Below are positions 29,829 through 53,026 of a stretch of 64,000 nt of DNA, in pieces. The stretch lies in the IMG/VR virus record IMGVR_UViG_3300025684_000012; one strand, written 5' to 3'. Under the pieces are notes generated by a model. That model saw only the letters and a program-made list of their open reading frames with translations. It was not told where the DNA came from and ran no database searches. A program made the position numbers and the translations under genes. How positions within the stretch are numbered: position 1 is the first letter of the stretch; each line of letters starts with the position of its first letter. Source of the DNA: a virus.

Positions 29829-30334
29829 TCATTGAACTTATGGAGTCCTAGCCAAGCAACCAAGACTTTTCTGGTGCCACATATAACCTGCTGTGCCTCA
29901 TGAACCAAGTCAGATTTAAATATGACCGTCTCACCTATATCTAGATTAATTGGATCACATCCATCAATGTGTAACGCACCACCTTCAAGATCATCCGATT
30001 TATCCAGCATAGTGACTGTAGACCAGATTCGATAGTCCTCTAAACGAGACTCGCGGAAAGTATCCTTATGAGGCTTAAAGTAGTCACCGGGCTGGTAGAT
30101 CAGGAAGTCAAACTGATTCACCGACGTACCGTCGTTTATATGGGTCTCAATAATATCCACAACCTCTGGGAACAGCCTAGGATCAATACGTACAGCCATA
30201 GTTTTACGCATTGAAGGATCATATAAGTCTTTACCCTTAGCCGTTACCCCAGTGCGATACAGTCGGGCCGTATCGCCATATTCAACAACCTCTTGAATAA
30301 GGTCTGGGGGTATTATTTTGACTACATCATACAT
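29810..30334 (-). CDS. 2OG-Fe(II) oxygenase
   Basis: YQPGDYFKPHKD (HxD), EGGAL, H...V..G.RKVLVAW. Confidence 0.88.
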   Translation of the reverse strand: MYDVVKIIPPDLIQEVVEYGDTARLYRTGVTAKGKDLYDPSMRKTMAVRIDPRLFPEVVDIIETHINDGTSVNQFDFLIYQPGDYFKPHKDTFRESRLEDYRIWSTVTMLDKSDDLEGGALHIDGCDPINLDIGETVIFKSDLVHEAQQVICGTRKVLVAWLGLHKFNDINIVD

Positions 30335-30566
30335 CCAACGTATTCACTCTCGGTAGATAGTTTAAATGCCTTGCCTCTGCTTCTAGTTGACCGACTATTG
30401 AAGGAGTAAGAAACTTCTTAACATCCTCAATCTCCATACCATTTTTATCACATATGTGTACTATGGCATCCATATACGAAACGTGACGACTTTCTCTAAC
30501 TAAATTTTCAACCATTTTTGAAAAGGTTTTTTTAGTGAGAAAAACTTCTGCCTCATCCACAGCCAT
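30327..30566 (-). CDS. 33: late transcription coactivator gp33
   Basis: SYMDAIVHIC...EIE...L.....LEAEARHLNYL; start adjusted to MAVDE. Confidence 0.8.
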   Translation of the reverse strand: MAVDEAEVFLTKKTFSKMVENLVRESRHVSYMDAIVHICDKNGMEIEDVKKFLTPSIVGQLEAEARHLNYLPRVNTLDV

Positions 30567-32685: not shown

Positions 32686-32841
32686 TATAGCTTTCCCTCT
32701 TTTCTCATTTGCGCACTATATGTTATTATAAATACACCCATTAGCCAACGCTCGACGAGTACGTAATAATCATAGTATACCCGGATTGGCTACAGGTATA
32801 CCATACTACATGACTCCTGTTTAGTCAACAAATTAATTTGA

Positions 32842-32849
32842 TATAAATA
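32842..32849 (+). promoter_or_regulatory. late promoter TATAAATA (second copy at 32727-32734)
   Basis: Exact consensus. Confidence 0.65.
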
Positions 32850-32854
32850 AAAGC

Positions 32855-33109
32855 ATGACAAATGAACTATTCGATTTCGGCTTCACGTTAGTCGATGAGC
32901 ACGATCTTGAGTCTGTCCAACAGATGGGAGAGCTGCAGTCGACGGCTGATGACGTACAGAATCGGCTTGATAGTCTCTATGACGCTATACAGCCATTGCT
33001 AGCAAACTTAAAGGATGCTCCTGAAAAGGATTACATCTTATGGCCAAACCGTTTAGAGAAGATCGAACAGTTTGAAGAATATATTCTTAAAATCTACCAA
33101 GGGAAATAA
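32855..33109 (+). CDS. conserved hypothetical protein
   Basis: FDFGFTLVDE, PLLANLK..PEKDYILWPNR. Confidence 0.7.
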   Translation: MTNELFDFGFTLVDEHDLESVQQMGELQSTADDVQNRLDSLYDAIQPLLANLKDAPEKDYILWPNRLEKIEQFEEYILKIYQGK

Positions 33110-33114
33110 CACTA

Positions 33115-33981
33115 ATGTTTTTCAACCTACTAAATGAAAAAATTCTGCGGGATACTTCTGATGGTCACGTATATCAGTACGTACAATCTCAAGAGAAAGA
33201 ACAGATCGCCCGCCGGTTAAATGGACAATTGAAAGCTGAGCTGAATGAGCACAGTATTCGTCTTATTCACACAACACCAGATGTTAACGTTATAGAGGAA
33301 GCTCTCAACCGAGCTCCTATGTATCTGAATGCCATTAAAAATAGAGGCTATCAAAGCATATTGTTTGTCGGTCACTTTAATGCCGACGTACCTTCGTGGG
33401 TATTGCCAATCGGTCATGACCGCATCCCTGATGCAGTGACCCCTGAGCGCGCTCAACTAGCTAATGCTGCTGACACGAATGTTGTATTCCAATTCTTACC
33501 AATTGTCGCTAAGATGTATGGGTACAAGGGCGAGTTTTGTTACACATCACCAGACCCTGTCAGACACCGCGGTGTAATGCACACTCTGTATAATAACAAC
33601 GGTTTGCGTGAAGGTTTGATTAAGTGTACAAACCAATACCGACATGGTATGCCTGCTGCTGAGCTTGAATTGAACATGGCGCCAGGTCCAAGGTTCGATG
33701 CTGTAGTATTCCTTGGTGTACCTAAAAATCAGGGTGAGGACTTCAGTGCTGACGAAGTTCGTCAGGTATTTGCTCCATACTGTGTAGAAGGATTTGATAT
33801 GGTCGATCTGTACTACGGTGCACCTGACCTAGGCAGATTTATCGGTGGTGAGTTAAAGGATACTAACGCCGATGTAGGTGTTGCTTGGACGACTCGGGCT
33901 CAGTGGGAAGAAAACTTCCAGGCTGACGGTGGTCGACCTGAAGAGCATGATATCTTCAAACGCACATTCAAAGTATACTAG
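33115..33981 (+). CDS. hypothetical protein
   Basis: 288-aa ORF followed by a terminator. Confidence 0.7.
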   Translation: MFFNLLNEKILRDTSDGHVYQYVQSQEKEQIARRLNGQLKAELNEHSIRLIHTTPDVNVIEEALNRAPMYLNAIKNRGYQSILFVGHFNADVPSWVLPIGHDRIPDAVTPERAQLANAADTNVVFQFLPIVAKMYGYKGEFCYTSPDPVRHRGVMHTLYNNNGLREGLIKCTNQYRHGMPAAELELNMAPGPRFDAVVFLGVPKNQGEDFSADEVRQVFAPYCVEGFDMVDLYYGAPDLGRFIGGELKDTNADVGVAWTTRAQWEENFQADGGRPEEHDIFKRTFKVY

Positions 33982-33988
33982 TAATAAG

Positions 33989-34013
33989 AAGGGGACATAA
34001 AGTCCCCTTTTTT
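33989..34013 (+). terminator. rho-independent terminator between convergent units
   Basis: AAGGGGAC-ATAAA-GTCCCCTT then T-tract. Confidence 0.8.
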
Positions 34014-34151: not shown

Positions 34152-34787
34152 TCATTGCTCGCTCTCCATCACAATAACCTTAACATTATCAGCAGCTTTA
34201 AATTTTAAGCCGTTATGACTATGATACACGAAAAACTGTACTTTGTCAAACTCTCTGAAGAACTTATTCCAAATTGGTCTCCAGTTACTTGCCATACGAT
34301 GTGTGTTTAACGGACTACGATCGCTCTCTAGAAAGGTATCTGTGTGACTCTTGAGATTCATGTCAAACATAGAGTCAAAGCCGTATAAATGCACCTCAGT
34401 CGCCTTCATGGACCGGCATGCATAATCAACAGCCATGTGGCCGCAACTGTAGTTAGTACCTGCCTGAGCCAATGTATGGCCGGGTAGTTGAGCGTATGTG
34501 GGGATGTGGGTATGAAACCCCTTAATGTTCTGTGAATACTTTAAGTAAAATGTTGGCTGCATCTCCATCCACTTTCGTGGGCGAGTACCCAGTACCCAGT
34601 CGTACTGACCCAGGTTGCTCTTTCCTTCTTGCAGAGCCTTCATCATTTTGAAGTCTACCATACAGGTGGCATATACTTCTTCGGAAGTAAAATCGATGGG
34701 CGGCATATTGCACACTAGCAATTTTCCTTCGGTCCCACGTTCGAACAGCTTCCAGTGATCACCGTTGCCTAAAATATTTACTCTCAT
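34152..34787 (-). CDS. sialyltransferase/Maf-like (GT29/GT42-like) glycosyltransferase
   Basis: NILGNG at the N-terminus; SCGHMAV..A......EVHLYGFD. Confidence 0.55.
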   Translation of the reverse strand: MRVNILGNGDHWKLFERGTEGKLLVCNMPPIDFTSEEVYATCMVDFKMMKALQEGKSNLGQYDWVLGTRPRKWMEMQPTFYLKYSQNIKGFHTHIPTYAQLPGHTLAQAGTNYSCGHMAVDYACRSMKATEVHLYGFDSMFDMNLKSHTDTFLESDRSPLNTHRMASNWRPIWNKFFREFDKVQFFVYHSHNGLKFKAADNVKVIVMESEQ

Positions 34788-35167
34788 TATCTAATCCCAT
34801 CTTTGTGGAAGGACCCATATACACAATGCACTAATTCGTGTCCCCACGTAGTCAATTCTTTATAGTCTTTGGCACCGTTCGGTTCTACTACATATATAGT
34901 GCAGTGGTTCATCACCGATTGGTCGTTTTTATTTAGTGACCACAACGCTAGCCCTTGTACTTGCTCATCTCTGGTGAGTAATTTTTGGCTGTGGATGTAG
35001 TTATTCAGTGCGCGCTCACTATCAAACACCATTACAGTAATTGGGAATTGTTTGCCGCTATAGTCGTGAGTCTTGACTAATTCGGGACCGCGCGCGTTAT
35101 TATCACACGACAATAGGGTAACCGCGAGCAGCAGTACCGCTGCTAGTTTAATAATACTTGACTGCAT
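34787..35167 (-). CDS. putative lipoprotein with HExxH motif
   Basis: Signal peptide with lipobox LLSC; GHELVHC. Confidence 0.6.
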   Translation of the reverse strand: MQSSIIKLAAVLLLAVTLLSCDNNARGPELVKTHDYSGKQFPITVMVFDSERALNNYIHSQKLLTRDEQVQGLALWSLNKNDQSVMNHCTIYVVEPNGAKDYKELTTWGHELVHCVYGSFHKDGIR

Positions 35168-35480
35168 ATCCTTCCTCTACCAGCAGATCGTTAATATTCA
35201 TACCCCCGTACATTATTTCGCCTAGGATTCTTCCGTACTTCCCTTGCTTGTGAGTTTTGATCTGGATAGTTGATCCTACCGCTACAATTTTTTCACAGTA
35301 CTCCTTCGCTTCCAAGCCTCTGCGTTTCTCTTCAAGGTCCCTAGTGCGAGACTCAGGAGCATCAATACCGAATAGACGGACGCGCTTGTTATGAAGAACA
35401 ATATCAAAGCCAAGATCAATATCAACGTCAACAGTATCCCCGTCAACCCAACGGTTAACCTTTGCAGTATACACATACAT
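35148..35480 (-). CDS. thermonuclease (SNase) family protein
   Basis: VDGDTV, RVRLFGIDAPE, GKYGRILG. Confidence 0.9.
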   Translation of the reverse strand: MYVYTAKVNRWVDGDTVDVDIDLGFDIVLHNKRVRLFGIDAPESRTRDLEEKRRGLEAKEYCEKIVAVGSTIQIKTHKQGKYGRILGEIMYGGMNINDLLVEEGYAVKYY

Positions 35481-35485
35481 ATCTA

Positions 35486-35686
35486 CTAACCCAAATATTT
35501 TGAGATAATCTCAAGCTGGTCTTCATATTCTGAAATTGCCTTTAGCTCGATCTCAATAGCCCCAATAATATCCGGATGCTCTCCAATACCAACAGGATTG
35601 TTTAGATAAACCTCAATATTAGCCAGATGTTTATCGATGTGTCCTTTCGCATGAGACTGTACAGCTTTAATTATACGCTCTCTCAT
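35486..35686 (-). CDS. conserved hypothetical protein
   Basis: ANIEVYLNNPVGIGEHPDI. Confidence 0.7.
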   Translation of the reverse strand: MRERIIKAVQSHAKGHIDKHLANIEVYLNNPVGIGEHPDIIGAIEIELKAISEYEDQLEIISKYLG

Positions 35687-36171
35687 TTTTTACCATCCAC
35701 TGTCATGACCTGTACTGTGCGTGCCTTTTCTACTGCTCTAGATCCAAACCAGAACGATATAATGGCAGCAAATATTGCTTGGGTATTATCGTCCCACACG
35801 ATCTGTATAGCTCTACCCAATTCCATCCCACCGTCAATAGCGCTCATTAGAATGGTATATTCAACCATTGCAAATACAATAAAAAACGCGTATGTAATAA
35901 CTGGTCTAACTGATCGCTGTAGCCCCGAGATGAAGCCTGTGTGTTGAGATATGGTCGTATCATGTAACAGCAGAGCCTTCTGCTCCTCATGTAGCCCCAT
36001 CTCTTGAAATTTTCTGATCTCGTGGTCGTATCCAGATTTTTGTAACTGGAACATCCTCTCCATCTTTTCGAGCTCAAACTTCTGGTTTTGTTTACTTTTA
36101 AAGTGGTCAGTAATAGCAGGTACTACAGACGACCCAAACCCAAGCAGAGATCCTATTAAACTACTAAGCAT
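35683..36171 (-). CDS. holin-like 3TM membrane protein
   Basis: SVRPVITY, IISFWFGSR. Confidence 0.7.
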   Translation of the reverse strand: MLSSLIGSLLGFGSSVVPAITDHFKSKQNQKFELEKMERMFQLQKSGYDHEIRKFQEMGLHEEQKALLLHDTTISQHTGFISGLQRSVRPVITYAFFIVFAMVEYTILMSAIDGGMELGRAIQIVWDDNTQAIFAAIISFWFGSRAVEKARTVQVMTVDGKK

Positions 36172-36179
36172 AATAACTC

Positions 36180-36854
36180 CTATCTCCAGTGATTTCGTAT
36201 CCACGATTGTGGCATGTATTTATCTCTGGCGGTTGCAACAATTTCTGATATAGATTGGACTATACTAGGTCTACCATGAAAGCAGATTATAGAAGCCCCA
36301 TCAATATTATCAGGGTATACTTGATACTTATAAGATTTTATCTCGGACGGATATAATGATTGTAGAAGGTCGCGCTTGGTTACCGTAGCGTTTAAATATT
36401 CACCATCCCCTCTGTAGGTTTTGGTGATCGTCTCGCGCGCGAGAAAGAATGTAGTCCATATCCAACTAGCGGACTGAGCATCAAAGCAAAGAATTCCGCT
36501 TTGCAGCCTACCTTTCAAATGAGCTTGATGTGGGTTTACACAACCCAAGTCCTCTATACCAGCAAACGATCCTTTATACGAAAGAAGCCAGTCTATGTTA
36601 TCCACAATCAACGTGTCCAGATCTAGGTAGACAACCTGTCCATCTAATCTACCATCAAACAGCTGCAGTTTATTCCACCAACCAGCTAAGCCCTGATTAA
36701 GTACCACAGTATCTATACCTGGCAATAACCTATCCGAGAAGCACACAAACTTATGGTCAACCGTACTATTACGCTGTACAGAAGACTTGAGATTGTACAC
36801 ATAATCTGGGGAGAATTTATCTCCCCATAACACGCAGGCAACCGTAACCATCAC
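36180..36854 (-). CDS. glycosyltransferase (GT8-like, GT-A fold)
   Basis: CVLWGDKF, GWWNKLQLF, YLDLD (DxD), CFHGRP. Confidence 0.8.
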   Translation of the reverse strand: MMVTVACVLWGDKFSPDYVYNLKSSVQRNSTVDHKFVCFSDRLLPGIDTVVLNQGLAGWWNKLQLFDGRLDGQVVYLDLDTLIVDNIDWLLSYKGSFAGIEDLGCVNPHQAHLKGRLQSGILCFDAQSASWIWTTFFLARETITKTYRGDGEYLNATVTKRDLLQSLYPSEIKSYKYQVYPDNIDGASIICFHGRPSIVQSISEIVATARDKYMPQSWIRNHWR

Positions 36855-37501
36855 TGCTCCAAATATTCAAAGTCGGAACTGAAGTTGTGCTTAGCTAAGC
36901 ATCCCTGGATTTTCTGAACCGTGCTGTATGAGTCATCAGCATACGCACACCACGGATAATATTCTTGCAGCCACTCAAATCGTCGCTTACTTAAAAATAC
37001 ATCCGGTGTACAAGCATCCGCTTTTGCTGATTCACACAGTACGCGTGCTCCAGCAGGGGTCACTATGTATGCATGTGCTCCTGGGAAGTGAGCTTTTGAG
37101 GTCAACTCTCCCCAACCCAATTGGCTTGGATTGGTGTACTTACCATAAGAAGGCTTGCCAATTGAACCAACGAACATCGGTAGCGTTTGAGGTAGAGGGG
37201 CGTTGATTACCGCATCATGCTCAAATATTGCATATGGCTCGTTGTGGTTCATACACGACATCCACAGTGTGTAGTGTGATAGGAAGCATGCTAGAACATT
37301 ATCCCACTTCGAATAATAGTTAGAGAAGTTGCTCGTTGTAATCCCTTCGCGTTTATAGATAGATTCCACAGCGTGTGTGTCAGGTGTGATAGCATCAAAC
37401 TTTTGTATATCGACGCCATATACCACACCCGACTCGATACAGCGATCCGCACTACGCTGAGATTTAGCGTGGCCGGGTATAGCAATTACGAAACATTTCA
37501 T
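36851..37501 (-). CDS. glycosyltransferase family 25
   Basis: FDAI, CFLSHYTLW, IFEHDA, GAHAYIVTP. Confidence 0.85.
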   Translation of the reverse strand: MKCFVIAIPGHAKSQRSADRCIESGVVYGVDIQKFDAITPDTHAVESIYKREGITTSNFSNYYSKWDNVLACFLSHYTLWMSCMNHNEPYAIFEHDAVINAPLPQTLPMFVGSIGKPSYGKYTNPSQLGWGELTSKAHFPGAHAYIVTPAGARVLCESAKADACTPDVFLSKRRFEWLQEYYPWCAYADDSYSTVQKIQGCLAKHNFSSDFEYLEQ

Positions 37502-37503
37502 CT

Positions 37504-37770
37504 TTAATCAAATATCAACTTAATGTCATCGTAGTCAACGACCGCGCATTGCACCCCATCGAGCTCAACAGCGATCGCTTTACCCCAATCAAACATAATT
37601 ACATCACCAGCCTTTAGAGTATTTTTTTGAGCAATTTCAATACTCATTCCGATCACTTGAGCTGGTTTATGACCAGATGGCTTAACAGCGGACAATATAA
37701 GACCACTGGCTGTGGTGGTTTCCTGTTCCTTTTGTTGAGTTACCAAAACATTATTATGTAAAACTCTCAT
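37504..37770 (-). CDS. co-chaperonin GroES-like (gp31 analogue)
   Basis: RVLHNNVLV, TTASGLIL, GDVIMF. Confidence 0.8.
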   Translation of the reverse strand: MRVLHNNVLVTQQKEQETTTASGLILSAVKPSGHKPAQVIGMSIEIAQKNTLKAGDVIMFDWGKAIAVELDGVQCAVVDYDDIKLIFD

Positions 37771-37824
37771 TCATTAGATTCCTGCAAAGTAGATAAAGTC
37801 TGCTTTTATATATTCAGACTGTAA

Positions 37825-38811
37825 CTATCGGTAGTCTTCTAACGAGAAATCTGTTCCATGCATTTTGTGTAAATCGCGGTCATGGTTGCTGTATACCAAT
37901 GTCTCTGGATCGTCTATCAGGAAGTCGCACGTCTTACAGTAGTCGGGATAATCTCCGGTACGGTGTCCTTCTCTCAGGGCTTCATACTCTTCACCAAAGA
38001 AGATATCTATTACACTCTCTTCAGAGGCATGACCTAACACGGCGTTTTCATCTTGACCTAATACCTGGCAGCATGGATGTACGGCACCAGTCTTACCCTT
38101 TTCCATACCACCAGCACGAATAACTAAGTCTGGTGAGAATGGGCGACCACAGGTTTTAATTCCACCAGCTCGAGCATTGTCTCCGATGTCATATACTCCA
38201 GACCAGTTGTGCATCTTCCAGATCTCAGTCTTAACGCCCAGTTCATCAACAAGCGCTTTGTACCGACTGAGTTCCTGGTCAATGTTACTATTATCTGTAA
38301 TAAGGTGATACGTAGCTACGACACAGCTAGATCCGGTTTCCTCAACATACGCCACCATTTCTTTAATATTCTGTTTAATTTTTTCGTACGCACCACCGAT
38401 GCTGTTATACATCCACTTAGAATAATCTTCCCCAGTAGAGCCGATGAACGAAAATCGATAGAAATCTAATCCAGCATCAACACAATCTCTCATGTACTGC
38501 CCTTCCATCTTAAACCCATTAGAGAATATAAATGCTTGAGCGTCATACTTCTTAACAACTTTAATGTACTCAGGTAAGTTCTTCGCCATCGTAGCTTCAC
38601 CCGATCCATCCAAGTTTACTACACGCAATCCGTATTGAGCACAATCCGCCACATACCTTTCGAATTCGTCTAGCTTCATGATGCGGCGGAAACGCTTATC
38701 ACGTCCGCCCTCTCGCAAATCTTGAGGGCACATTGAGCATGAGTAGTTACATCCCCCAGCAACCTCAATAACGGCTCGATCGATGTGAAAGTTCTCTCTA
38801 TTCATTTCCAT
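37825..38811 (-). CDS. radical SAM protein with SPASM/twitch domain
   Basis: CNYSCSMC; C-terminal CGRPF...PCC...CKTC. Confidence 0.9.
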   Translation of the reverse strand: MEMNRENFHIDRAVIEVAGGCNYSCSMCPQDLREGGRDKRFRRIMKLDEFERYVADCAQYGLRVVNLDGSGEATMAKNLPEYIKVVKKYDAQAFIFSNGFKMEGQYMRDCVDAGLDFYRFSFIGSTGEDYSKWMYNSIGGAYEKIKQNIKEMVAYVEETGSSCVVATYHLITDNSNIDQELSRYKALVDELGVKTEIWKMHNWSGVYDIGDNARAGGIKTCGRPFSPDLVIRAGGMEKGKTGAVHPCCQVLGQDENAVLGHASEESVIDIFFGEEYEALREGHRTGDYPDYCKTCDFLIDDPETLVYSNHDRDLHKMHGTDFSLEDYR

Positions 38812-39670
38812 AACGAATCCTCATATCCTGTTCATAGTTTATTGCTTTGGTTTTAGTGTGACCCAGAAAGTCTGAAAAATTGTCCATCCACCACCATATG
38901 TTCATGTGTTCCGTATCTATCGGGTGGACACGAACGGCATTAGGTGTATGGTATAGGGTGACGCCTTCTGGGCTAATAACTGCTGTGGGTCTTGCAAAGT
39001 TTTTTGCTACGTAGTGCCACATACCATCATAACATATACACAAGCGCGCTGTTGATATTAGATACATAGCTTCTCGTATAGGTGTGCGGTATGTTATCTC
39101 CTGGACATCAAATCCATTCTCTCTCAACTCAGTCATCAGCATACCCCAATCTCTAGCCGTAAATAAGCGTTTCCAGGTTCTTGGAGCTTCAGCGTTGAAT
39201 ACTGGTGTCCACACCACTATACGCTTGGTATTTGTAGGCTGAAAGGAACTCTTCCGGAAAATATAATTGTTGTCTGGTACGGGAGTACCGTCATTATCAT
39301 CATAAGCACCAGACTCAAACCAGAATCTATTCTTAGGGGAGTTCCCCGATCTAGCGGTAACTCGTGAGCGGCCGTCCTCTATAACAACATCATCAGCATA
39401 CTTCCAATCAGTATACCGGCCGGTTGAATTGAATACGTGGACAACTGTCACCCTTTCCTTGTCTACATAGAAATTGTGAAGATAGTTCATGCGCTCGATA
39501 ATGGTTTCCGGGTCTTCATAGTGATGGTAGTAATCCTCACCATGTTCCCAGTGCATCTCGAGCTCTATTTTTACACCCTCGCGTTGGGCATATGCGTGAC
39601 AGGAGTTAAGCGCCCACATAACGTCGCCAACACCTGGTGTGCCACGCCAACTCACCTTTTCAATTTTCAT
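38798..39670 (-). CDS. GT9 (heptosyltransferase)-like glycosyltransferase
   Basis: GVGDVM near the N-terminus; ICYDGMWHYVA....P.AVI. Confidence 0.55.
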   Translation of the reverse strand: MKIEKVSWRGTPGVGDVMWALNSCHAYAQREGVKIELEMHWEHGEDYYHHYEDPETIIERMNYLHNFYVDKERVTVVHVFNSTGRYTDWKYADDVVIEDGRSRVTARSGNSPKNRFWFESGAYDDNDGTPVPDNNYIFRKSSFQPTNTKRIVVWTPVFNAEAPRTWKRLFTARDWGMLMTELRENGFDVQEITYRTPIREAMYLISTARLCICYDGMWHYVAKNFARPTAVISPEGVTLYHTPNAVRVHPIDTEHMNIWWWMDNFSDFLGHTKTKAINYEQDMRIRYGNE

Positions 39671-39671
39671 A

Positions 39672-40022
39672 CTAACCCTGTGTGAGTTTCTTTATTTGTC
39701 TACCGGAACCTGTGTTAGCATATAACCCAAACCAAGCAGCACCAGCACCAACTACTACCGAGATCAAACCTGCTTGAGCTGTGTTTGGATCTGGTAGTGT
39801 CATAAACCAGTTAACGGTTTGATATAATATAACGATGTATGTGGTGATAAATGCTCTTGGGAAGATTCGCCAAGCATCTACAGCTTCAGCCAGGTCAAGT
39901 AGCGCTTGGTATCTATTTCCTAGTATTTGTTTTTGCGTGGTGTCGAATTCAACTTCCAGCGCGATTTTCTTTTTAATCGTTGCCGTTGGCTGTATTGGTT
40001 GTTGTAGTACTTCTTCAGTCAT
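39672..40022 (-). CDS. small membrane protein (holin-like)
   Basis: DAWRIFPR; two TM segments. Confidence 0.6.
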   Translation of the reverse strand: MTEEVLQQPIQPTATIKKKIALEVEFDTTQKQILGNRYQALLDLAEAVDAWRIFPRAFITTYIVILYQTVNWFMTLPDPNTAQAGLISVVVGAGAAWFGLYANTGSGRQIKKLTQG

Positions 40023-40023
40023 A

Positions 40024-41547
40024 TCAAAACACCTTTACTTCATATTTTTGTTCCCACAACTCCGCGTCGTGCTCATCGTTAACCATAGGGCGGCCACGAA
40101 TATTTAGTGAGGTATTAAGTAGCATAGGAACGCCTGTTCGTTCGTAGTATTCTTCGATCACCTTGCGAAAGACTGATTCACAGTCCTTCTTAACGATTTG
40201 AACACGAGCGGTACCATCTACATGAGTCACTGGTGCATAGTCGTGTTTAGCGACAGAAGTGAACTGCATATACTCGTTCATCGGGCCATCGAAGTATTCG
40301 CTAGCGAACTCTTCTAACACTGCAGGAGCGAACGGACGATACTTCTGTCGACGTTTGATGGTATTAACCGTGTCTTGCACATCATACCTAACATCAGCAA
40401 TCAGGGATCGATTGCCAAGAGCGCGAGGACCAAACTCAGCGCGACCATTAGCGATTCCGCAATATTTGTGTTGGAGAAGATGATCGACAACTTCTCGAGG
40501 ATTAATTTCTCTATCAATGTTGTATCCACAGTACGGACTCCATATAAGTTTATCATTGCCAGTTGCCTTTGCCCATGTCATAGCAGCAGTTCCTAGACCA
40601 GAGCCTGCATCAGTCGGGGATACTGCAATATGAACTTCGTCAAACAACTCGAATAAGCGAGAGTTGATAACAACGTTCTGAGCACAACCACCCGAATAGC
40701 ATAGCTTCTTACCGTATTTAGCTGCTTCAGTCATGATCTGCATAATTGCATAATCAGCGAAGTCCTGTGTTGCTCGAGCAGCAACTTTGTCTTCTACAGC
40801 ATTAACCTTTGCCCGCAACTCCTCACGGAATACTACGCGATCCTTTTCTCGTTGAGATTTCTCGATGTCCCCTACAGCAATCCCATACGCTACTTCAGGG
40901 GCTAGAGTAGATAGATCTTCCCACCAGTCAATCAACCAATCGGTGATAGCCTTTGATTCTGGGCATGTTTCTTGGTAGGCAGATAACCCCATAACAACAT
41001 ATTCATCTTCGAGTGGACGTAAGCCCAAGAATTTAGTTACGGTAGTATAAACGAGACCAACGGATTTAGGATAGTGCCACTCTTTGATTAGGTTGAAGTT
41101 GGAGTCCATAATCGTAGCACATTGGAGCTCTCCAACACCATCAATAGACACTAGCACAGTGTCGTGTTTGTCGTCCCATGGACGCGTATAGAACGCAGCT
41201 GCGCAATGAGATTCGTGGTGCTTGTGCTTAGCGTCGTATACAAGTGACTCTGGCACTACAACGCGGGAAAACCCTTCCTCCGCATCCCGAGGTTTGTTAT
41301 TAACAACCTTACTGATGTCGCCTTTGACCCCAGCGCCCCCACGCATATCAAACTTCACTGTATGATCTTCGTAGAATGAAACGTGGTCTTTGTCCGAAAC
41401 CATATCCCATAGCTCATCGGGAATAAGGGGGTCGTTTTTCTTCTTAGAGTACCGTTCGCCGTGAGTAGCAAACTCAACCTGACCGCTCTGATTTATTATC
41501 GCGAAGCCTGAGTCATGATAATGTTCACTGAAACCTACATATTTCAT
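40024..41547 (-). CDS. O-carbamoyltransferase (NodU/CmcH family)
   Basis: HDSG, ERYSKKKND, HHESH, SGGCAQN, EFGPRALGNRS, YRPFAP, LLNTSLN. Confidence 0.93.
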   Translation of the reverse strand: MKYVGFSEHYHDSGFAIINQSGQVEFATHGERYSKKKNDPLIPDELWDMVSDKDHVSFYEDHTVKFDMRGGAGVKGDISKVVNNKPRDAEEGFSRVVVPESLVYDAKHKHHESHCAAAFYTRPWDDKHDTVLVSIDGVGELQCATIMDSNFNLIKEWHYPKSVGLVYTTVTKFLGLRPLEDEYVVMGLSAYQETCPESKAITDWLIDWWEDLSTLAPEVAYGIAVGDIEKSQREKDRVVFREELRAKVNAVEDKVAARATQDFADYAIMQIMTEAAKYGKKLCYSGGCAQNVVINSRLFELFDEVHIAVSPTDAGSGLGTAAMTWAKATGNDKLIWSPYCGYNIDREINPREVVDHLLQHKYCGIANGRAEFGPRALGNRSLIADVRYDVQDTVNTIKRRQKYRPFAPAVLEEFASEYFDGPMNEYMQFTSVAKHDYAPVTHVDGTARVQIVKKDCESVFRKVIEEYYERTGVPMLLNTSLNIRGRPMVNDEHDAELWEQKYEVKVF

Positions 41548-41591
41548 TGTTCACCATATTTTATAGAATTAATATTGATTTAGGTGAACAA

Positions 41592-41599
41592 TATTTATA
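41592..41599 (-). promoter_or_regulatory. late promoter TATAAATA heading the carbamoyltransferase-glycosyltransferase operon
   Basis: Exact consensus 45 nt upstream of the ATG at 41547. Confidence 0.75.
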
Positions 41600-41605
41600 C
41601 CCGAT

Positions 41606-42181
41606 TTAACTTCCTGTGATATATTCGTACACAGCTTTCCAGTTGCTACAACGGGGGATGGTGTCGTGTTTATTGTAAACGTGTTCCATCAACAAAGGCT
41701 CGAGACCGAATTTAGCACCCGTCTCAGCGTTAGCAACAACGTCTTCGATCCAGATACATCCAGTGTCCTTATACTTGATTAGCTCTTCATCTTTATCAGC
41801 TCCAGTATCCAAGTATATGAACTTCTCGAATGCTGTACGGCCAAACAATTCAAGCAAGTTCTTGTTACGTAGATACTGAGCGTACGTATCAGTACTTAGG
41901 GAGGTGATGGCGTGAAACACATACCCATGCTCCTCATGCAGTTTACGTACATACTTGATGGCGTCCTTGTGAGGGGGCAGCTTTCGGATCTGAGCGGATT
42001 CGTTGAACATACGAACAAACATCCGGCCGGTTTTCTTATCCAGGTTGTATCGTTCGCCAACGTTATACACATCCGGATTCTTTAACTCAAACCCATGACG
42101 GGCCATCCATTGTTCAAAAGCATATCCCCAATCTAATAGGACGCCATCACAATCTACTAAAATTACTTTATCTCTATTCAT
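41606..42181 (-). CDS. HAD-family 5'(3')-deoxyribonucleotidase-like protein
   Basis: VDCDGVLLDW, WIED. Confidence 0.8.
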   Translation of the reverse strand: MNRDKVILVDCDGVLLDWGYAFEQWMARHGFELKNPDVYNVGERYNLDKKTGRMFVRMFNESAQIRKLPPHKDAIKYVRKLHEEHGYVFHAITSLSTDTYAQYLRNKNLLELFGRTAFEKFIYLDTGADKDEELIKYKDTGCIWIEDVVANAETGAKFGLEPLLMEHVYNKHDTIPRCSNWKAVYEYITGS

Positions 42182-42204
42182 TCAATACTCTCTTTCATAC
42201 TATA

Positions 42205-42396
42205 TTAATAATCGCCTTCGCGAACTCCCAACATTATACAATAAACTTCACTGGAAGTATACCCTAAATTTTCCAATTCAGTTTTCAACCCAGACCAGTC
42301 AGGGTTTTCGCTCTCGTATATGTAATACCGGACCGCGGCTTGCATGTATTGCTCTTTTCTATCCAACCCTTTCACCGAACTCTCACTCATATTCAT
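42205..42396 (-). CDS. hypothetical early protein
   Basis: ORF coupled to the upstream gene. Confidence 0.55.
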   Translation of the reverse strand: MNMSESSVKGLDRKEQYMQAAVRYYIYESENPDWSGLKTELENLGYTSSEVYCIMLGVREGDY

Positions 42397-42824
42397 TACG
42401 CTGCCTCTTCCGTTTCCACATAGCTGATATTGCTCTTGCCATCAGCATCCTGCAACCAAGTGCGAAAACCAATAACACGGTTGCTCATATCGTAACTCTT
42501 TTGATCTCGAACGCACTCTAGAACACCATTCTCTAGAGTGGCGTAGATAGCAGTGTCCCACTCCTCAACTACCCGATCAGGATCAAAGCAGACATCATCC
42601 ACCAAATTCTCGCCAATGATATACTCCTCAGAATAATCAGAGCGGTGTGCAATGCAACGACCCACAGCGGCATAGAAGCCAGCGTCCATCGCCTGTTGCA
42701 GAGTACACTCGACAACGTAGGTGTCACCACCTTTGTTCTTCCAGTACTGCGGGCACAAACCCTTGCCGTCCCAATCGTGGGCACCGTAGTTCTCGCGGAA
42801 TTGTGTGTGGATAACTAATTTCAT
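42396..42824 (-). CDS. conserved hypothetical early protein
   Basis: ENYGAHDWDGKG.CPQYWK.KGG.TY. Confidence 0.7.
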   Translation of the reverse strand: MKLVIHTQFRENYGAHDWDGKGLCPQYWKNKGGDTYVVECTLQQAMDAGFYAAVGRCIAHRSDYSEEYIIGENLVDDVCFDPDRVVEEWDTAIYATLENGVLECVRDQKSYDMSNRVIGFRTWLQDADGKSNISYVETEEAA

Positions 42825-42856
42825 AATTTTTACTCCAGTCTCTTTGAGTTTGATTG

Positions 42857-43105
42857 TTACGCCGCGTTTCCAAACAGCTGTGACATGCCTTCGTATACAA
42901 CGTTGTAAGCGCTTAGCTCGTACGACCAGTTGTAGTAGAACTCATCGTCGTCTTGCTCTTCACCGGGCAGGTTAATGTATTCAGCCCAGAGACGGTCCAT
43001 AGACTTCATACCTTCAAGACAGTCACCGTTTCCACGGCGAGCCATCATTTTCCACGCGTCGTCAAAAGACATCTCAACTTCGTAAAACTCAGGCAATCTA
43101 AACAT
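42857..43105 (-). CDS. hypothetical early protein
   Basis: Start adjusted to MFRLPE after the GAGAGAGA leader. Confidence 0.65.
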   Translation of the reverse strand: MFRLPEFYEVEMSFDDAWKMMARRGNGDCLEGMKSMDRLWAEYINLPGEEQDDDEFYYNWSYELSAYNVVYEGMSQLFGNAA

Positions 43106-43112
43106 ATCAATC

Positions 43113-43169
43113 TCTCTCTCAGTTCTCATTCAATATAGCTATTATACTTGTTTGAGTGACAAAGACAAC
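43113..43169 (-). promoter_or_regulatory. early promoter cassette copy 1 (TTGTCT-N16-TATAAT plus leader)
   Basis: 55/57 nt identical to 47516-47572. Confidence 0.8.
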
Positions 43170-43308
43170 AGGCAAAACACTTTTTTTTCAGTTTTTTTTC
43201 AATTATTTCGTGTTTTTTTGATGGTGTTCACGCGCAGTATTAGTGGGGCGCGTTTTAGGGGAGCCCTACTCCGAGCGAAGTAGGGGGGGGATTCTGTAGA
43301 TTATTGCA

Positions 43309-44127
43309 TTATTGCTGGGTTTTATACCGTCTATCATTCCAGTGCTGGACCATATCAATCTTCCAGTCACCGCCCGTATAATGACAAAACTTAGCCTTAT
43401 CCAAGAATTCTTGTTCTGTGCTGTAGTGGGGAGAGTCGTTCCATGTCTGGTCGATTGTTTCGATGTCAAACTCATGCTTAGCAAACATCGCTGAGATGTA
43501 TGGTTGATCATTCATAATAGACATATGGAAGTCGCCAGTGTAACACCATTCTTCCCAAGGGGTGAATAGCTCACGAGCTCGTAGTCGCGCTTCGCGGGAC
43601 CAGATCACTACACCAGTGTTCATGATAGTCATCTTGCTAGGGCGATTTGGTGGTAACGTTGGTAGTACCGGGCACCCATGCATTTCAAACTTCTTACGGA
43701 AGTTGTTGAAGGTATCACTGCTACTATCCCACGAGTTGTACCCCCCACCCGAAGCCGTTACGAAGTCAGACTCTAGCACACCATACACGTCAGCACCTGA
43801 TTGAGCTAAGTCGAAGATATTCTCGTCAGTGTTTACTACAATATCAGTATCGACAAATAGCACGTTATCGTATTGATCAAACATAGGGTCTAACCAGGTG
43901 CGCGCGCATTCGTGTAGTAGCGACGTATTACAACCATGACCTTTAGTGGTGATCCGCTCATCCCAGTACAGATGGTCTGCACCGATCTTATCAGCATACT
44001 GCTTGAACGATTCTCTAGATATCCGCGCACACTCTTGATACAAATCAGAGCGCTTCCAACCTTGTATATCGCCTCGCTTATCTACTTCGGGTGAAGTGAT
44101 CATATACTGTATAATAATATTTTTCAT
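43309..44127 (-). CDS. glycosyltransferase (GT8/GT34-like)
   Basis: LFVDTDIVV (DxD), NTGVVIW, NDQPYI, WN...FCHYTG. Confidence 0.8.
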   Translation of the reverse strand: MKNIIIQYMITSPEVDKRGDIQGWKRSDLYQECARISRESFKQYADKIGADHLYWDERITTKGHGCNTSLLHECARTWLDPMFDQYDNVLFVDTDIVVNTDENIFDLAQSGADVYGVLESDFVTASGGGYNSWDSSSDTFNNFRKKFEMHGCPVLPTLPPNRPSKMTIMNTGVVIWSREARLRARELFTPWEEWCYTGDFHMSIMNDQPYISAMFAKHEFDIETIDQTWNDSPHYSTEQEFLDKAKFCHYTGGDWKIDMVQHWNDRRYKTQQ

Positions 44128-45159: not shown

Positions 45160-45396
45160 TTAAGTATTGATGGTGTTTTTCTTGCCTGCACCTTTTTTAA
45201 TATTATTCAGGTGAGATTCCCAGTCCTTACCAGCCATACTCAATGTAGATTTTGATTGAGATACCAGCCCAGGAGCGCTCGTATAGAAGCGCTCCCAGCC
45301 TGGGTTATCAATCAACCAATTATCATAATTAGATATGGACAAGAACTGTTCGCAGACCTCTCCCGTCTCTTTGTTTCTAAATTCATAGCTAGGCAT
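45160..45396 (-). CDS. conserved small protein (FmdB-like N-terminus)
   Basis: MPSYEFRNKETGE. Confidence 0.7.
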   Translation of the reverse strand: MPSYEFRNKETGEVCEQFLSISNYDNWLIDNPGWERFYTSAPGLVSQSKSTLSMAGKDWESHLNNIKKGAGKKNTINT

Positions 45397-45742: not shown

Positions 45743-46168
45743 TCACTGACGGATAAGTTCTGGGAAAGCCTCTTGTACTAATTTTTTAGTAAGATACTTT
45801 ACCTTCAGATCTTTGTCTTTCATATTGCAAACAAGCTGAGCGTCGGTGGGGTGAATGGCTTCCAACAGCTGAATAAACTTCTGTTCGCGACGGACTGCAG
45901 GGAGGGCATCTCCGGTACCACCTACGATAAACAATCCTAGTTCCTTGTGCTTCTTCAATAGGGTAGACGGTACGGATTCCGGTTTATTCGGCTCGTACGG
46001 AGGTGCGCCTTCTGGTAGGTTGAACTGTAGGGTGTCATCAAAAGATGCGCGCAGAACGTCTTTCAGCGCCCAGACATCGCTGTATTGTTGAAGCACCGAT
46101 ATACGGTCCTTTTTGCTTTTGGCTTGGCTAAACTTTTCAATTATTTCGTAAACTTCAATACGTCTCAT
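45743..46168 (-). CDS. conserved hypothetical T4-like protein
   Basis: LPEGAPPY, RREQKFIQLLEAIHP.DA, EAFPEL. Confidence 0.75.
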   Translation of the reverse strand: MRRIEVYEIIEKFSQAKSKKDRISVLQQYSDVWALKDVLRASFDDTLQFNLPEGAPPYEPNKPESVPSTLLKKHKELGLFIVGGTGDALPAVRREQKFIQLLEAIHPTDAQLVCNMKDKDLKVKYLTKKLVQEAFPELIRQ

Positions 46169-47604: not shown

Positions 47605-48228
47605 TTATTTTTGGCTGATCATGTAGTCAAATTCTCTACATTTTATGCAGGATCCGCAATGATCGAGGGATGGGTGCACGCAGGTATGCACTAATTGCTG
47701 GATGTGCTCAGGTAAAGTATTCCACTGCTCGAGCTTGGACATATGGGCAAGAGGCGCAGACATTGTGGTGTGTATCCCAAGCCTACCTAATACGCGCTCT
47801 ATACTACGAAAATGGTCATCCACCCAATCGGTATGCTTATCCCCAAGTTCATCCCCCGCAGTGATTATGCCGCCATTGTACCCATAGTAAATGTTTCGTA
47901 TCTGTGGGTTATTCAGGTTAACCAGTTGCGCTATATTAGTCCAGATGAAGAACATGGGAGGAGCAGACTGCCCCCACAATTTGTTCCAGTGGTCGACGGT
48001 CTGTTGTCTGTCGCAACAGGGGTCCGGATTGAAGTATTCTATAATGCGTAGGTCAACATCCAGTGCTTCCGCTATATTCTGTGCGGCCTGTAGTTGCTGT
48101 TGCCAGTGTGCACCCAACTCAACGTGAAAGCAAAGAGGTTTAAAACCTTGCTGTATGCAGTGATACAGAGCTGCTGTTGATTCAGTGCCCCCGGATAACG
48201 GTATGATACAATCGTAACTAGTCTTCAT
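47605..48228 (-). CDS. QueC-like (7-cyano-7-deazaguanine synthase family) PP-loop ATPase
   Basis: LSGGTEST, PLAHMSK, TC...HCGSCIKC. Confidence 0.75.
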   Translation of the reverse strand: MKTSYDCIIPLSGGTESTAALYHCIQQGFKPLCFHVELGAHWQQQLQAAQNIAEALDVDLRIIEYFNPDPCCDRQQTVDHWNKLWGQSAPPMFFIWTNIAQLVNLNNPQIRNIYYGYNGGIITAGDELGDKHTDWVDDHFRSIERVLGRLGIHTTMSAPLAHMSKLEQWNTLPEHIQQLVHTCVHPSLDHCGSCIKCREFDYMISQK

Positions 48229-52459: not shown

Positions 52460-53026
52460 CTAAACCCTTTTAAGTAATATGGCTGTGTTATTACCGCTTC
52501 GACTATCATAGTCAAATGTGTACATTTTCTCATATGGAAAATCATCTTTCTTCAAAAAGTGATTCACTAAATCAGTAACGGATCGAAACCATTTCTCGTG
52601 ATAGTCATCTACTATAATATACTTAACATTGGCCCTGGAACATAATACCAGATCACTTGTAAGGCCTGCAACGGAATGATCCCCATCCACGAAGCATGTA
52701 TCGAACCCTTCCACTTGGGCAGGAGTCAAGTTTATACTATTACATTCATAGAAGTCGAATCGATCCCCGTATCTTTGCTTAATCTTAGCAGCATTGGGTA
52801 TTGTATACTTATGTTGGCAAATGTCAACGGAATTGAGGTATAGATCTGGATTTAACTCGAGCCACATACAAGCACTGTGTCCTGCATTGAACCCTATTTC
52901 GAAAATGCGGCTAGCCTGAGTGTCCTGTAATACTTTAGTCAGTGCCGCAACCGTTCTATCAGTGGCGACCATATGTCCTTCGAGCGTGCTCTTAACATCG
53001 TCGGTTAGAAATGAGGTGTCTATCAT
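52460..53026 (-). CDS. class I SAM-dependent methyltransferase
   Basis: EIGFNAGHSA, FVDGDH, IIVDD. Confidence 0.88.
   Translation of the reverse strand: MIDTSFLTDDVKSTLEGHMVATDRTVAALTKVLQDTQASRIFEIGFNAGHSACMWLELNPDLYLNSVDICQHKYTIPNAAKIKQRYGDRFDFYECNSINLTPAQVEGFDTCFVDGDHSVAGLTSDLVLCSRANVKYIIVDDYHEKWFRSVTDLVNHFLKKDDFPYEKMYTFDYDSRSGNNTAILLKRV

Follow-up and report, generated by a model that had tools for sequence, protein, structure and literature searches.

A putative glycan-building and tailoring module with a conserved late promoter in an uncultured marine T4-like phage

Introduction

Chloroviruses and mimiviruses encode glycan machineries of their own, and T-even phages glycosylate 5-hydroxymethylcytosine (5hmC). 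In bacteria, TibC and AAH, which belong to glycosyltransferase family 9 (GT9), attach heptose to serines of autotransporters, and Maf attaches nonulosonic acid to flagellin. We know of no tailoring by a radical S-adenosylmethionine (SAM) enzyme or a carbamoyltransferase in virus-encoded virion glycosylation systems. Here, we analyzed a cluster of glycosyltransferase (GT)-like, carbamoyltransferase and radical SAM genes, all on the minus strand, at positions 34,152-44,127 of IMGVR_UViG_3300025684_000012, a stretch of 64,000 nt (the whole of which is hereafter called the window) from an uncultured marine T4-like myovirus.

The closest described islands are found in other T4-like marine myoviruses. 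Cyanomyophages carry phoH-proximal lipopolysaccharide (LPS) clusters together with a carbamoyltransferase (Sullivan et al. 2010, PMC3037559), and pelagimyophages carry a GT8-rich host recognition cluster (HRC) with radical SAM cassettes (Zaragoza-Solas et al. 2020, PMC7029224); the published interpretation of such islands is modification of the host O-chain (PMC7029224, PMC3037559). The cluster in the window resembles them in its position next to phoH and in its combination of GT8, LPS-type GTs, a carbamoyltransferase and a radical SAM cassette but, unlike the pelagimyophage genes, it lies outside the fiber-containing HRC. Glycosylation of the virion itself has been described for the capsid and tail tube of mycobacteriophages (Freeman et al. 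2023, as summarized in PMC12801897). In actinobacteriophages, the GT genes lie beside the structural genes that they modify and glycosylation was detected by mass spectrometry, whereas the present cluster is separated from the fiber genes by ~18 kb. What it may share with virus-encoded virion glycosylation is a set of soluble viral GTs, possibly cytoplasmic at the time of assembly, and a nucleotide-sugar supply encoded by the virus. A further point of comparison is the 5hmC carbamoyltransferase of metavirome phages, a member of the same NodU/CmcH/TobZ family that is defined by a co-occurring thymidylate-synthase-like dCMP hydroxymethylase (Yang et al. 2021, PMC8670742); five genomes related to the window lack this partner, and the neighbors of the carbamoyltransferase are GTs.

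Results

A five-gene core with a variable periphery

The cluster was compared with 80 loci of related viruses. Counts for core genes are based on the 67 loci with sufficient flanking sequence and those for peripheral genes on 54 loci, promoter positions were surveyed in 47 distinct relatives, and the absence of genes at the genome level was assessed in five related near-complete genomes (two at least 90% complete, one a complete record). This comparison revealed a core of five genes, encoding a GT8-like protein, a HAD phosphatase, the carbamoyltransferase, a GT9-like protein and the radical SAM enzyme, surrounded by a variable periphery (Table 1). In all 67 loci, the radical SAM gene is immediately preceded by the GT9-like gene, and the HAD, GT8-like and carbamoyltransferase genes were present in 65, 65 and 63 of them, respectively; the gene for a 116-aa protein was found in 42/67. 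Among the peripheral genes, the sialyltransferase-like gene was detected in 40 of 54 loci, GT25 in 28, the 224-aa GT in 14 and Cpn10, scored within 10 kb of the locus, also in 14. The delimited core, the invariant GT9-like/radical SAM pair, and the conserved late promoter and terminator described below are new.

The initial annotation, made from the sequence alone, had listed five GT-like genes, an O-carbamoyltransferase and a radical SAM/SPASM enzyme in this region. All of them were recovered by Pfam, PHROG and AlphaFold2 (AF2) structure matches, and the synteny across the 80 loci indicates that the glycan-building set is genuine. Relatives of the radical SAM enzyme numbered 317 in IMG/VR and more than 1,400 protein variants in a large collection, with identities of 67-91% and contigs of up to ~167 kb. 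Compared with two related genomes, G002 and the complete genome G004, the radical SAM enzyme was 81% and 71% identical and the carbamoyltransferase 79% and 63%, on par with ribonucleotide reductase (RNR) and gp32, whereas the baseplate proteins of the same two genomes reached 30-59% and their fibers gave no match. These values point to strong constraint on the two enzymes. By its synteny, the set is no chance collection of genes, and the cluster very probably constitutes a single module for building and tailoring a glycan.

Table 1. Coordinates of the cluster genes and transcription signals in the window
Feature	Position	Strand	Remark
Terminator-like hairpin closing the block	33989..34009	-	Faces convergent late genes at 32855-33981
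Sialyltransferase/Maf/MptE-fold protein, 211 aa	34152..34787	-	AF2 fold; last gene of the block
GT-A glycosyltransferase, 224 aa	36180..36854	-	phrog_1962, E 3.4e-22; variable accessory
GT25-family glycosyltransferase	36851..37501	-	PF01755; variable accessory
Cpn10/GroES-like co-chaperonin	37504..37770	-	PF00166, 1.3e-10; passenger, located elsewhere in most relatives
Radical SAM enzyme with C-terminal SPASM/twitch-type auxiliary-cluster domain	37825..38811	-	PF04055, PF13186; most conserved gene of the cluster
Short GT-B glycosyltransferase, GT9-like, 290 aa	38798..39670	-	AF2 fold; overlaps radical SAM gene by 14 nt; core
116-aa protein with hydrophobic C-terminal segment	39672..40022	-	phrog_10198; close clade only
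NodU/CmcH/TobZ-family O-carbamoyltransferase, Kae1-like and YrdC-like halves	40024..41547	-	Near-core member
T4-type late promoter motif TATAAATA	41592..41599	-	45 nt before carbamoyltransferase ATG at 41547
HAD-superfamily phosphatase, NT5C-like cap	41606..42181	-	Core
GT8-like retaining glycosyltransferase, 272 aa	43309..44127	-	PF01501; ATG at 44127; core

Among 50,697 deposited phage records, Phage C48C1 (OQ984149) was the only syntenic match to the region and the sole carrier of the GT9-like/radical SAM pair. The same enzyme families are associated in more distant lineages as well. A very distant GT9-like relative (L105) still adjoins a radical SAM/SPASM gene, and another distant one (L107) is accompanied by genes for DegT, a radical SAM enzyme, a carbamoyltransferase and a PHROG-1962 GT, a few kb from a long-tail-fiber-like gene. 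The tailoring set is exchanged between sister lineages: in one locus (L082), GT8, PIG-L and two GT25 genes are accompanied by a second radical SAM gene and by genes for a methyltransferase and a hexapeptide acyltransferase, and G004 adds a GT25-like protein, a GT8 and a HAD-nucleotidyltransferase fusion. As for the supply of donors, an SDR sugar epimerase is encoded by all five related genomes, in C48C1 together with UDP-glucose dehydrogenase in the replication module; a NifU-like Fe-S scaffold is present as well. Neither a GmhA-type enzyme (PF13580) nor a CMP-sugar synthetase (PF02348) was found in any of the five genomes, and the donors are therefore not explained by phage genes.

Identity of the glycosyltransferase-like proteins

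The GT8-like protein scored 25.0 bits against PF01501, marginally above the cut-off of 24.3. Across 26 homologs, D93-x-D95, N170-T-G172 and H249-Y-T-G-G-x-x-K256 are invariant, in agreement with CAZy family GT8; no PDB sequence match was obtained with the single sequence or with the profile. The start of this gene overlaps the stop of an M15 peptidase gene, and it is therefore probably co-transcribed with phoH and the peptidase gene, both of whose products (M15 peptidase and PhoH) were also found by Pfam in this stretch. The GT25 protein belongs to its family by a match of 47.4 bits to PF01755 (cut-off 24, E 2.8e-12) over profile positions 27-105 of 199. For the 224-aa GT-A protein, likeness to GT8 is a lead from Atlas features and structure only, and a profile comparison with the GT8-like family (A4) gave no match. 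In other viruses, the PHROG 1962 GT domain occurs fused to MptE/Maf-like domains.

Since neither the 290-aa nor the 211-aa protein had an annotation, both were folded with AF2 using alignments of viral homologs. The model of the 290-aa protein (pLDDT 87) showed a GT-B architecture of two Rossmann domains, and the top eight VIA-align rows were all GT9 enzymes (Z 10.8-11.4 over 203-219 residues), with WaaC (Z 11.4), TibC (11.1) and WaaF (11.1) as the best matches. The fold thus agrees with GT9 by a small margin, other GT-B families following at Z 9-10. At the level of sequence, membership of GT9 was not recovered, as no match to Pfam (PF01075), NCBIfam or PDB was found, including with a 33-sequence profile. 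With 218 clusters among 1.84 billion representatives, the family is small, and profile searches with it do not extend into canonical GT9; one sister cluster in the Atlas has PF01075 in 32% of its members, which serves as a lead only. GT9 enzymes are characterized by an N-terminal G-D containing the catalytic aspartate and by a C-terminal donor-binding motif, D-x-G-x-x-H-x-A. The invariant G15-D16 and Y214-D215-G216-x-W218-H219-x-x-A222 of the phage homologs resemble these motifs as sequence patterns.

The model of the 211-aa protein (pLDDT 88) adopts a sialyltransferase-type fold, with matches to Maf (5mu5, Z 10.4) and CstII (Z 9.3-9.7). In total, 28 related chains were retrieved at Z of at least 6.8, followed by a sharp drop to 4.4, and Foldseek E-values reached only 3e-3. 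Its family contains 63 invariant columns in 28 homologs and was not linked by sequence to any known family, since no match was found in Pfam (PF01973/PF06002), PHROG, NCBIfam or PDB by single sequence or profile. On the basis of its predicted fold, this protein is a candidate CMP-ulosonic-acid transferase.

The best structure matches of the two proteins therefore include the protein O-glycosyltransferases TibC and Maf, which are best or tied-best for the 290-aa and 211-aa proteins, respectively, and which are soluble enzymes acting on repetitive surface proteins. The phage proteins differ from them in being much shorter and in having no sequence-level match, the 290-aa protein appears to lack the N-terminal region and the iron-binding Cys motif of TibC, and WaaC/WaaF and CstII, which act on lipooligosaccharide (LOS), score equally. 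The predicted folds do not separate a phage protein from the host envelope as the acceptor.

The tailoring enzymes

The radical SAM enzyme was identified by PF04055 (43.6 bits) and PF13186 (31.6 bits). It carries C21-x3-C25-x2-C28 and the invariant residues C221, C247, C248, C292 and C295, which is the pattern of a radical SAM/SPASM-twitch protein. It reaches no curated equivalog (best score 59 bits against a cut-off of 380; 23.7 bits against NF033640, cut-off 170), and a short, weak match to BtrN (E 2e-4) lies in its auxiliary-cluster domain. Genuine cellular homologs with 44-48% identity were found in many genomes of Pelagibacteraceae, including a 232-kb contig. Their neighbors encode a GT2/cytidylyltransferase, a hexapeptide transferase, an SDR dehydratase and epimerase, and a nucleotidyltransferase, and this arrangement recurs across single-amplified genomes (SAGs). 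Because of the sugar-nucleotide context in SAR11, the cysteine pattern and the weak BtrN match, the enzyme is placed in sugar chemistry and not in the maturation of peptides. A role as a maturase of peptides, including ribosomally synthesized and post-translationally modified peptides, was considered and rejected: its invariant neighbor is a GT-B enzyme and not a peptide, and the cellular homologs lie amid sugar genes.

On the 232-kb contig, from Pelagibacterales SAG-MED47, the radical SAM/SPASM gene (L094, 7989-8996; 47% identity to the phage enzyme) is located in a variable sugar-nucleotide island. The SAR11 gene is usually followed by one for a 461-aa protein with no match to any family, and the SAR11 proteins flanking the radical SAM homolog show no relation to the GT9-like family.

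The carbamoyltransferase (phrog_1601) matched PF16861 (1.4e-45) and PF02543 (8.4e-27), corresponding to the two halves that define its family. Its relatives in the PDB are NovN (5e-43), GdmN and TobZ, with E-values ranging from 5e-43 to 4e-23. It scored 140 bits against the NodU equivalog, for which the cut-off is 1000, and is thus a member of the family but not NodU itself. The HAD protein (phrog_420) scored 22.4 bits against NT5C, which is under the cut-off, and matched HAD-IA weakly; neither the single sequence nor a profile gave a PDB sequence match. In its homologs, D10-x-D12-G, S94, K130 and E146-D147 are invariant, so that the DxDG nucleophile motif is kept.

A late promoter of conserved position

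The exact late promoter that the initial annotation had placed ahead of the carbamoyltransferase gene was found on the minus strand as TATAAATA (Table 1). This motif occurs 13 times in the window against 4.5 expected, a number reached by none of 100 shuffled sequences, and most copies lie 20-45 nt before start codons. In 29 of the 47 distinct relatives, it is positioned 33-49 nt before the carbamoyltransferase start. In most close relatives, the motif immediately follows a GC-rich hairpin and a run of T, so that transcription of phoH, GT8 and HAD would stop there and a late unit would begin; the window itself lacks that hairpin. In a distant clade, the carbamoyltransferase gene starts before the stop of the HAD gene, and several lineages of this clade carry the late motif just before the GT9-like/radical SAM pair instead. 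The window also encodes a gp33-like late co-activator (PF16805) at ~30327-30566. Sigma-70-like promoters were not enriched (37 against 31.6 expected), with one candidate at 43168-43141.

These motifs support a late promoter of conserved position for the block extending from the carbamoyltransferase to the sialyltransferase-like gene. Because a T4-type late promoter would drive this block, its product is predicted to be made during virion assembly. A description as one late operon is thus true only in part, since the GT8-like and HAD genes are located upstream of the promoter and, in most close relatives, are separated from the late block by the terminator. The stretch was also present at an identity of at least 99% in three metatranscriptome libraries, as contigs only, which give no strand, start, level or timing, may stem from DNA carry-over and do not establish transcription; the evidence from them is weak.

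Genome setting and neighboring genes

The genome of the phage measures ~125-160 kb, which is short of jumbo size, and the cluster has a single radical SAM gene. The cluster is flanked on one side by genes for gp32, the gp33-like co-activator and a 2-oxoglutarate (2OG) oxygenase, and on the other by phoH, a QueC-like gene and RNR, and the baseplate and fiber genes occupy 1-28 kb of the window. Among the other genes noted in the initial annotation, the GroES-like chaperone is Cpn10 according to PF00166 and the methyltransferase at 52460-53026 is Methyltransf_24; the holin-like gene is present but weakly matched, at 22 bits, below the cut-off. A 126-aa protein encoded inside the late block (34787-35167, minus strand), beside SNase-like and holin-like genes, bears an LLSC lipobox, a signal of the lipoprotein type, and in its C-terminal part a HELVH motif. 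It resembles a small secreted metalloprotease-like lipoprotein and may belong to a lysis set. Running toward the end of the block are genes for an 84-aa protein and for a rapidly evolving protein of 288 aa (33115-33981), which together span 32855-33981 and are preceded by late motifs at 32727-32734 and 32842-32849 (plus strand). The 288-aa protein, with 23-47% identity in relatives and no family match, could be an unrecognized late or virion protein.

Upstream of phoH, a 78-aa protein of PHROG 385 ('transcriptional regulator'; 45160-45396, minus strand) and a DUF6433 protein (45743-46168, minus strand) are encoded by genes that travel with the cluster, lying just upstream of phoH in 61-62 of the 67 loci. 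The QueC-like gene between the cluster and RNR (47605-48228, minus strand) matched only the first ~60 positions of the QueC profile and may encode a divergent or partial PP-loop ATPase. In the structural region of the related 160-kb genome G002, a giant open reading frame (ORF) of 5,165 aa was observed (G002:C1:100160-115657).

A cyanophage identity is disfavored: psbA was not found in any of the five related genomes, although C48C1 is filed under Kyanoviridae. Since these near-complete genomes lack psbA, the lineage is probably not that of a cyanophage. Contigs bearing the cluster (L087-L090) were binned in metagenome-assembled genomes (MAGs) labeled Porticoccaceae, Microbacteriaceae, Sphingobacteriales and Methanobacteriota. 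They represent phage contamination of the bins, and the MAG labels therefore carry no host information.

Aspartate-serine motifs and candidate acceptors

In the initial annotation, virion proteins had been proposed as the acceptors of the glycan, with arrays of D-S motifs in the fibers as candidate sites. Nothing in the present data identifies virion proteins in this role, and the GT8, GT9, GT25 and GT42-like families are also the classic set for the LOS/LPS core. The D-S arrays themselves are real in the window, where the 1790-aa fiber contains 37 D-S against 21.3 +/- 3.9 expected, spaced by ~21-23 residues, with an S+T content of 28%. They do not travel with the cluster, however: a co-occurrence of the cluster with DS-rich fibers was weak in G002 and not supported in G004, which has the core without any D-S-enriched large protein.

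Discussion

We propose that the enzymes of the cluster form a pathway in the host cytoplasm by which an oligosaccharide is built and edited. Starting from the gene identities, we infer its reactions, donors and acceptor as follows. Five kinds of soluble transferase (the GT9-like GT-B, GT8-like, GT25, PHROG-1962 GT-A and sialyltransferase/Maf-like proteins) would add sugars from nucleotide-activated donors, toward which relatives could contribute through UDP-glucose dehydrogenase, the SDR epimerase and, in some, the HAD-nucleotidyltransferase fusion. The HAD phosphatase would strip the phosphate off a sugar-phosphate intermediate. The twitch/SPASM radical SAM enzyme, whose gene is coupled to the GT9-like gene, would alter one sugar by oxidation, epimerization or deoxygenation, and the TobZ-type enzyme would consume carbamoyl phosphate and ATP to O-carbamoylate a free hydroxyl. 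The late promoter would switch on the block of carbamoyltransferase, GT9-like and radical SAM genes. As the acceptor we envisage a protein made by the phage and displayed on its particle (a fiber or some other surface protein), whose Ser/Thr residues would be glycosylated directly while it is still in the cytoplasm.

A virion or other phage protein is the acceptor that we favor, on account of the late timing and the soluble enzymes, and we put it forward tentatively, as a reading that falls somewhat short of probable. Pfam and ORF scans of 28-48 kb of the window revealed no flippase, polymerase, ligase or polyprenyl-phosphate transferase. The conservation of the core across phages with unrelated fibers, and the location of the distant L107 cluster near a fiber gene, are also consistent with such an acceptor. 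Several observations weigh against it. No acceptor was identified in the sequence, and the cluster lies ~18 kb from the fiber genes, among replication, nucleotide and auxiliary-metabolic-type genes (gp32, 2OG oxygenase, phoH, RNR). GT8, GT9, GT25 and GT42 are classic LOS-core families, and, as structural matches, WaaC and CstII are equal in score to TibC and Maf. With respect to timing, the GT8-like and HAD genes precede the late promoter and also, in relatives, the terminator, some lineages have no exact late motif upstream, and an RNA-library contig (40537-42438) crosses the promoter, which read-through transcription or contaminating DNA would explain. In addition, the complete genome G004 carries the core but encodes no large protein enriched in D-S, and the phage is one without a cultured host.

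A close rival is remodeling of the host envelope, in which the LPS/LOS core or another envelope glycan would be extended and edited from the cytoplasmic face so as to mask receptors, acting against superinfection or sparing progeny from loss on infected cells and debris. We regard this as possible but unlikely. The combination of GT8, GT9, GT25 and sialyltransferase-like enzymes amounts to a toolkit for the LOS core, with WaaC/WaaF and CstII among the top structural matches, and homologs of the radical SAM enzyme reside in surface-glycan islands of SAR11. The island adjoins phoH, as do the 'LPS clusters' of P-SSM2-type cyanophages (PMC3037559), GT8-rich islands have been interpreted as serving O-chain modification (PMC7029224), the accessory GT content is hypervariable, and the nucleotide-sugar genes of relatives are located in the replication module. 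Yet the conserved late promoter following a terminator indicates assembly time for the carbamoyltransferase, GT9-like and radical SAM genes, which leaves a new glycan little time to arrive at the surface of a host about to be lysed, and genes for transport or ligation are not present. Moreover, the core enzymes are 63-81% identical between phages whose fibers have no detectable similarity, so that their hosts and receptors probably differ, and envelope remodeling has no experimental support in any marine T4-like phage. The presence of at least two transcription units, with a terminator and late promoter between HAD and carbamoyltransferase in relatives, would also suit a mosaic of independently acquired sugar enzymes in a hyperplastic region, serving different targets (for example, GT8/HAD acting early on one and the late block on another) and perhaps including passengers that share no product. 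Unrelated genes (Cpn10, SNase, holin-like, lipoprotein) are indeed interleaved, and GT25, the 224-aa GT and Cpn10 are variably present. We consider such a mosaic improbable, given that the order and adjacency of the five core genes are kept in 63-67 of the 67 loci, that translational coupling joins HAD and carbamoyltransferase in the distant clade, and that very distant lineages again combine the same enzyme families.

The product could also be something other than a glycan on a protein or envelope. The enzyme families mirror aminoglycoside pathways, as seen in the TobZ-type carbamoyltransferase and the weak BtrN match, sister clusters include a PIG-L deacetylase and a DegT aminotransferase, and 'antibiotic synthesis' genes have been flagged in marine phages (PMC5705922, PMC12801897). 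A diffusible small molecule, such as an aminoglycoside- or nucleoside-like carbamoylated pseudo-oligosaccharide acting in or outside the infected cell, nevertheless seems quite improbable: in the loci examined, neither a cyclitol synthase (2-deoxy-scyllo-inosose synthase or inositol-phosphate synthase type) nor an exporter was seen, these families are also in general use for making amino-sugar glycans, and the BtrN match is short as well as weak. Hypermodification of DNA, with the carbamoyltransferase and the transferases decorating a modified base, finds a precedent in a phage NodU-family enzyme proven to carbamoylate 5hmC in DNA (PMC8670742), and an NT5C-like HAD protein, a QueC-like gene and RNR lie nearby, with a Tet/JBP homolog in C48C1. 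We hold this very improbable, in line with the initial annotation, which had already argued against a DNA-base target. The thymidylate-synthase-like hydroxymethylase (PF00303) is absent from the five related genomes and from the window ORFs scanned, Tet/JBP occurs in only one of these five genomes, and carbamoyltransferases flanked by GTs sit on unmodified contigs (PMC8670742). A late promoter gives the wrong timing for base replacement, and five GTs with variable tailoring enzymes far exceed what decoration of a base needs. The route to 5-carbamoyloxymethylcytosine was accordingly rejected as the principal explanation, in view of the absence of PF00303 from 5/5 genomes and the restriction of Tet/JBP to C48C1.

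The Tet/JBP-family dioxygenase of C48C1 is contained in a 472-aa 'hypothetical protein' (65 bits). Its locus (L109, OQ984149.1, 22584-26031; 49583-53030 of the record) continues with two hypothetical genes of ~340 aa, flanked by tRNA genes, and may serve, as a cassette of its own, to hypermodify cytosine after replication.

Returning to glycosylation of a phage protein, a more specific scheme would have the GT9-like enzyme prime Ser/Thr of a phage surface protein, with the coupled radical SAM enzyme and the TobZ-type enzyme editing the sugar, which would be an undescribed kind of virion O-glycosylation. In this detailed form the proposal is unlikely; if true, it would provide the first radical-SAM-tailored, carbamoylated protein glycan for any virus, and the system would be widely distributed across the uncultured T4-like phages of the sea.

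The T4-like phages of marine waters rank with the most abundant viruses there, and their 'LPS-like' islands have been known since 2010 without a functional test. With the island now reduced to a small, conserved five-gene core that appears to be wired to a late promoter, the question of virion or host becomes tractable. If the glycan is placed on the host, the cluster would represent the first pathway for superinfection control or receptor masking to be defined in lytic marine phages. If it is placed on the particle, the radical SAM and carbamoylation steps would be new chemistry for protein glycosylation, and, for a large and uncultured group of phages, the modification would bear on host range, on grazing and aggregation, and on recognition by antibodies or lectins.

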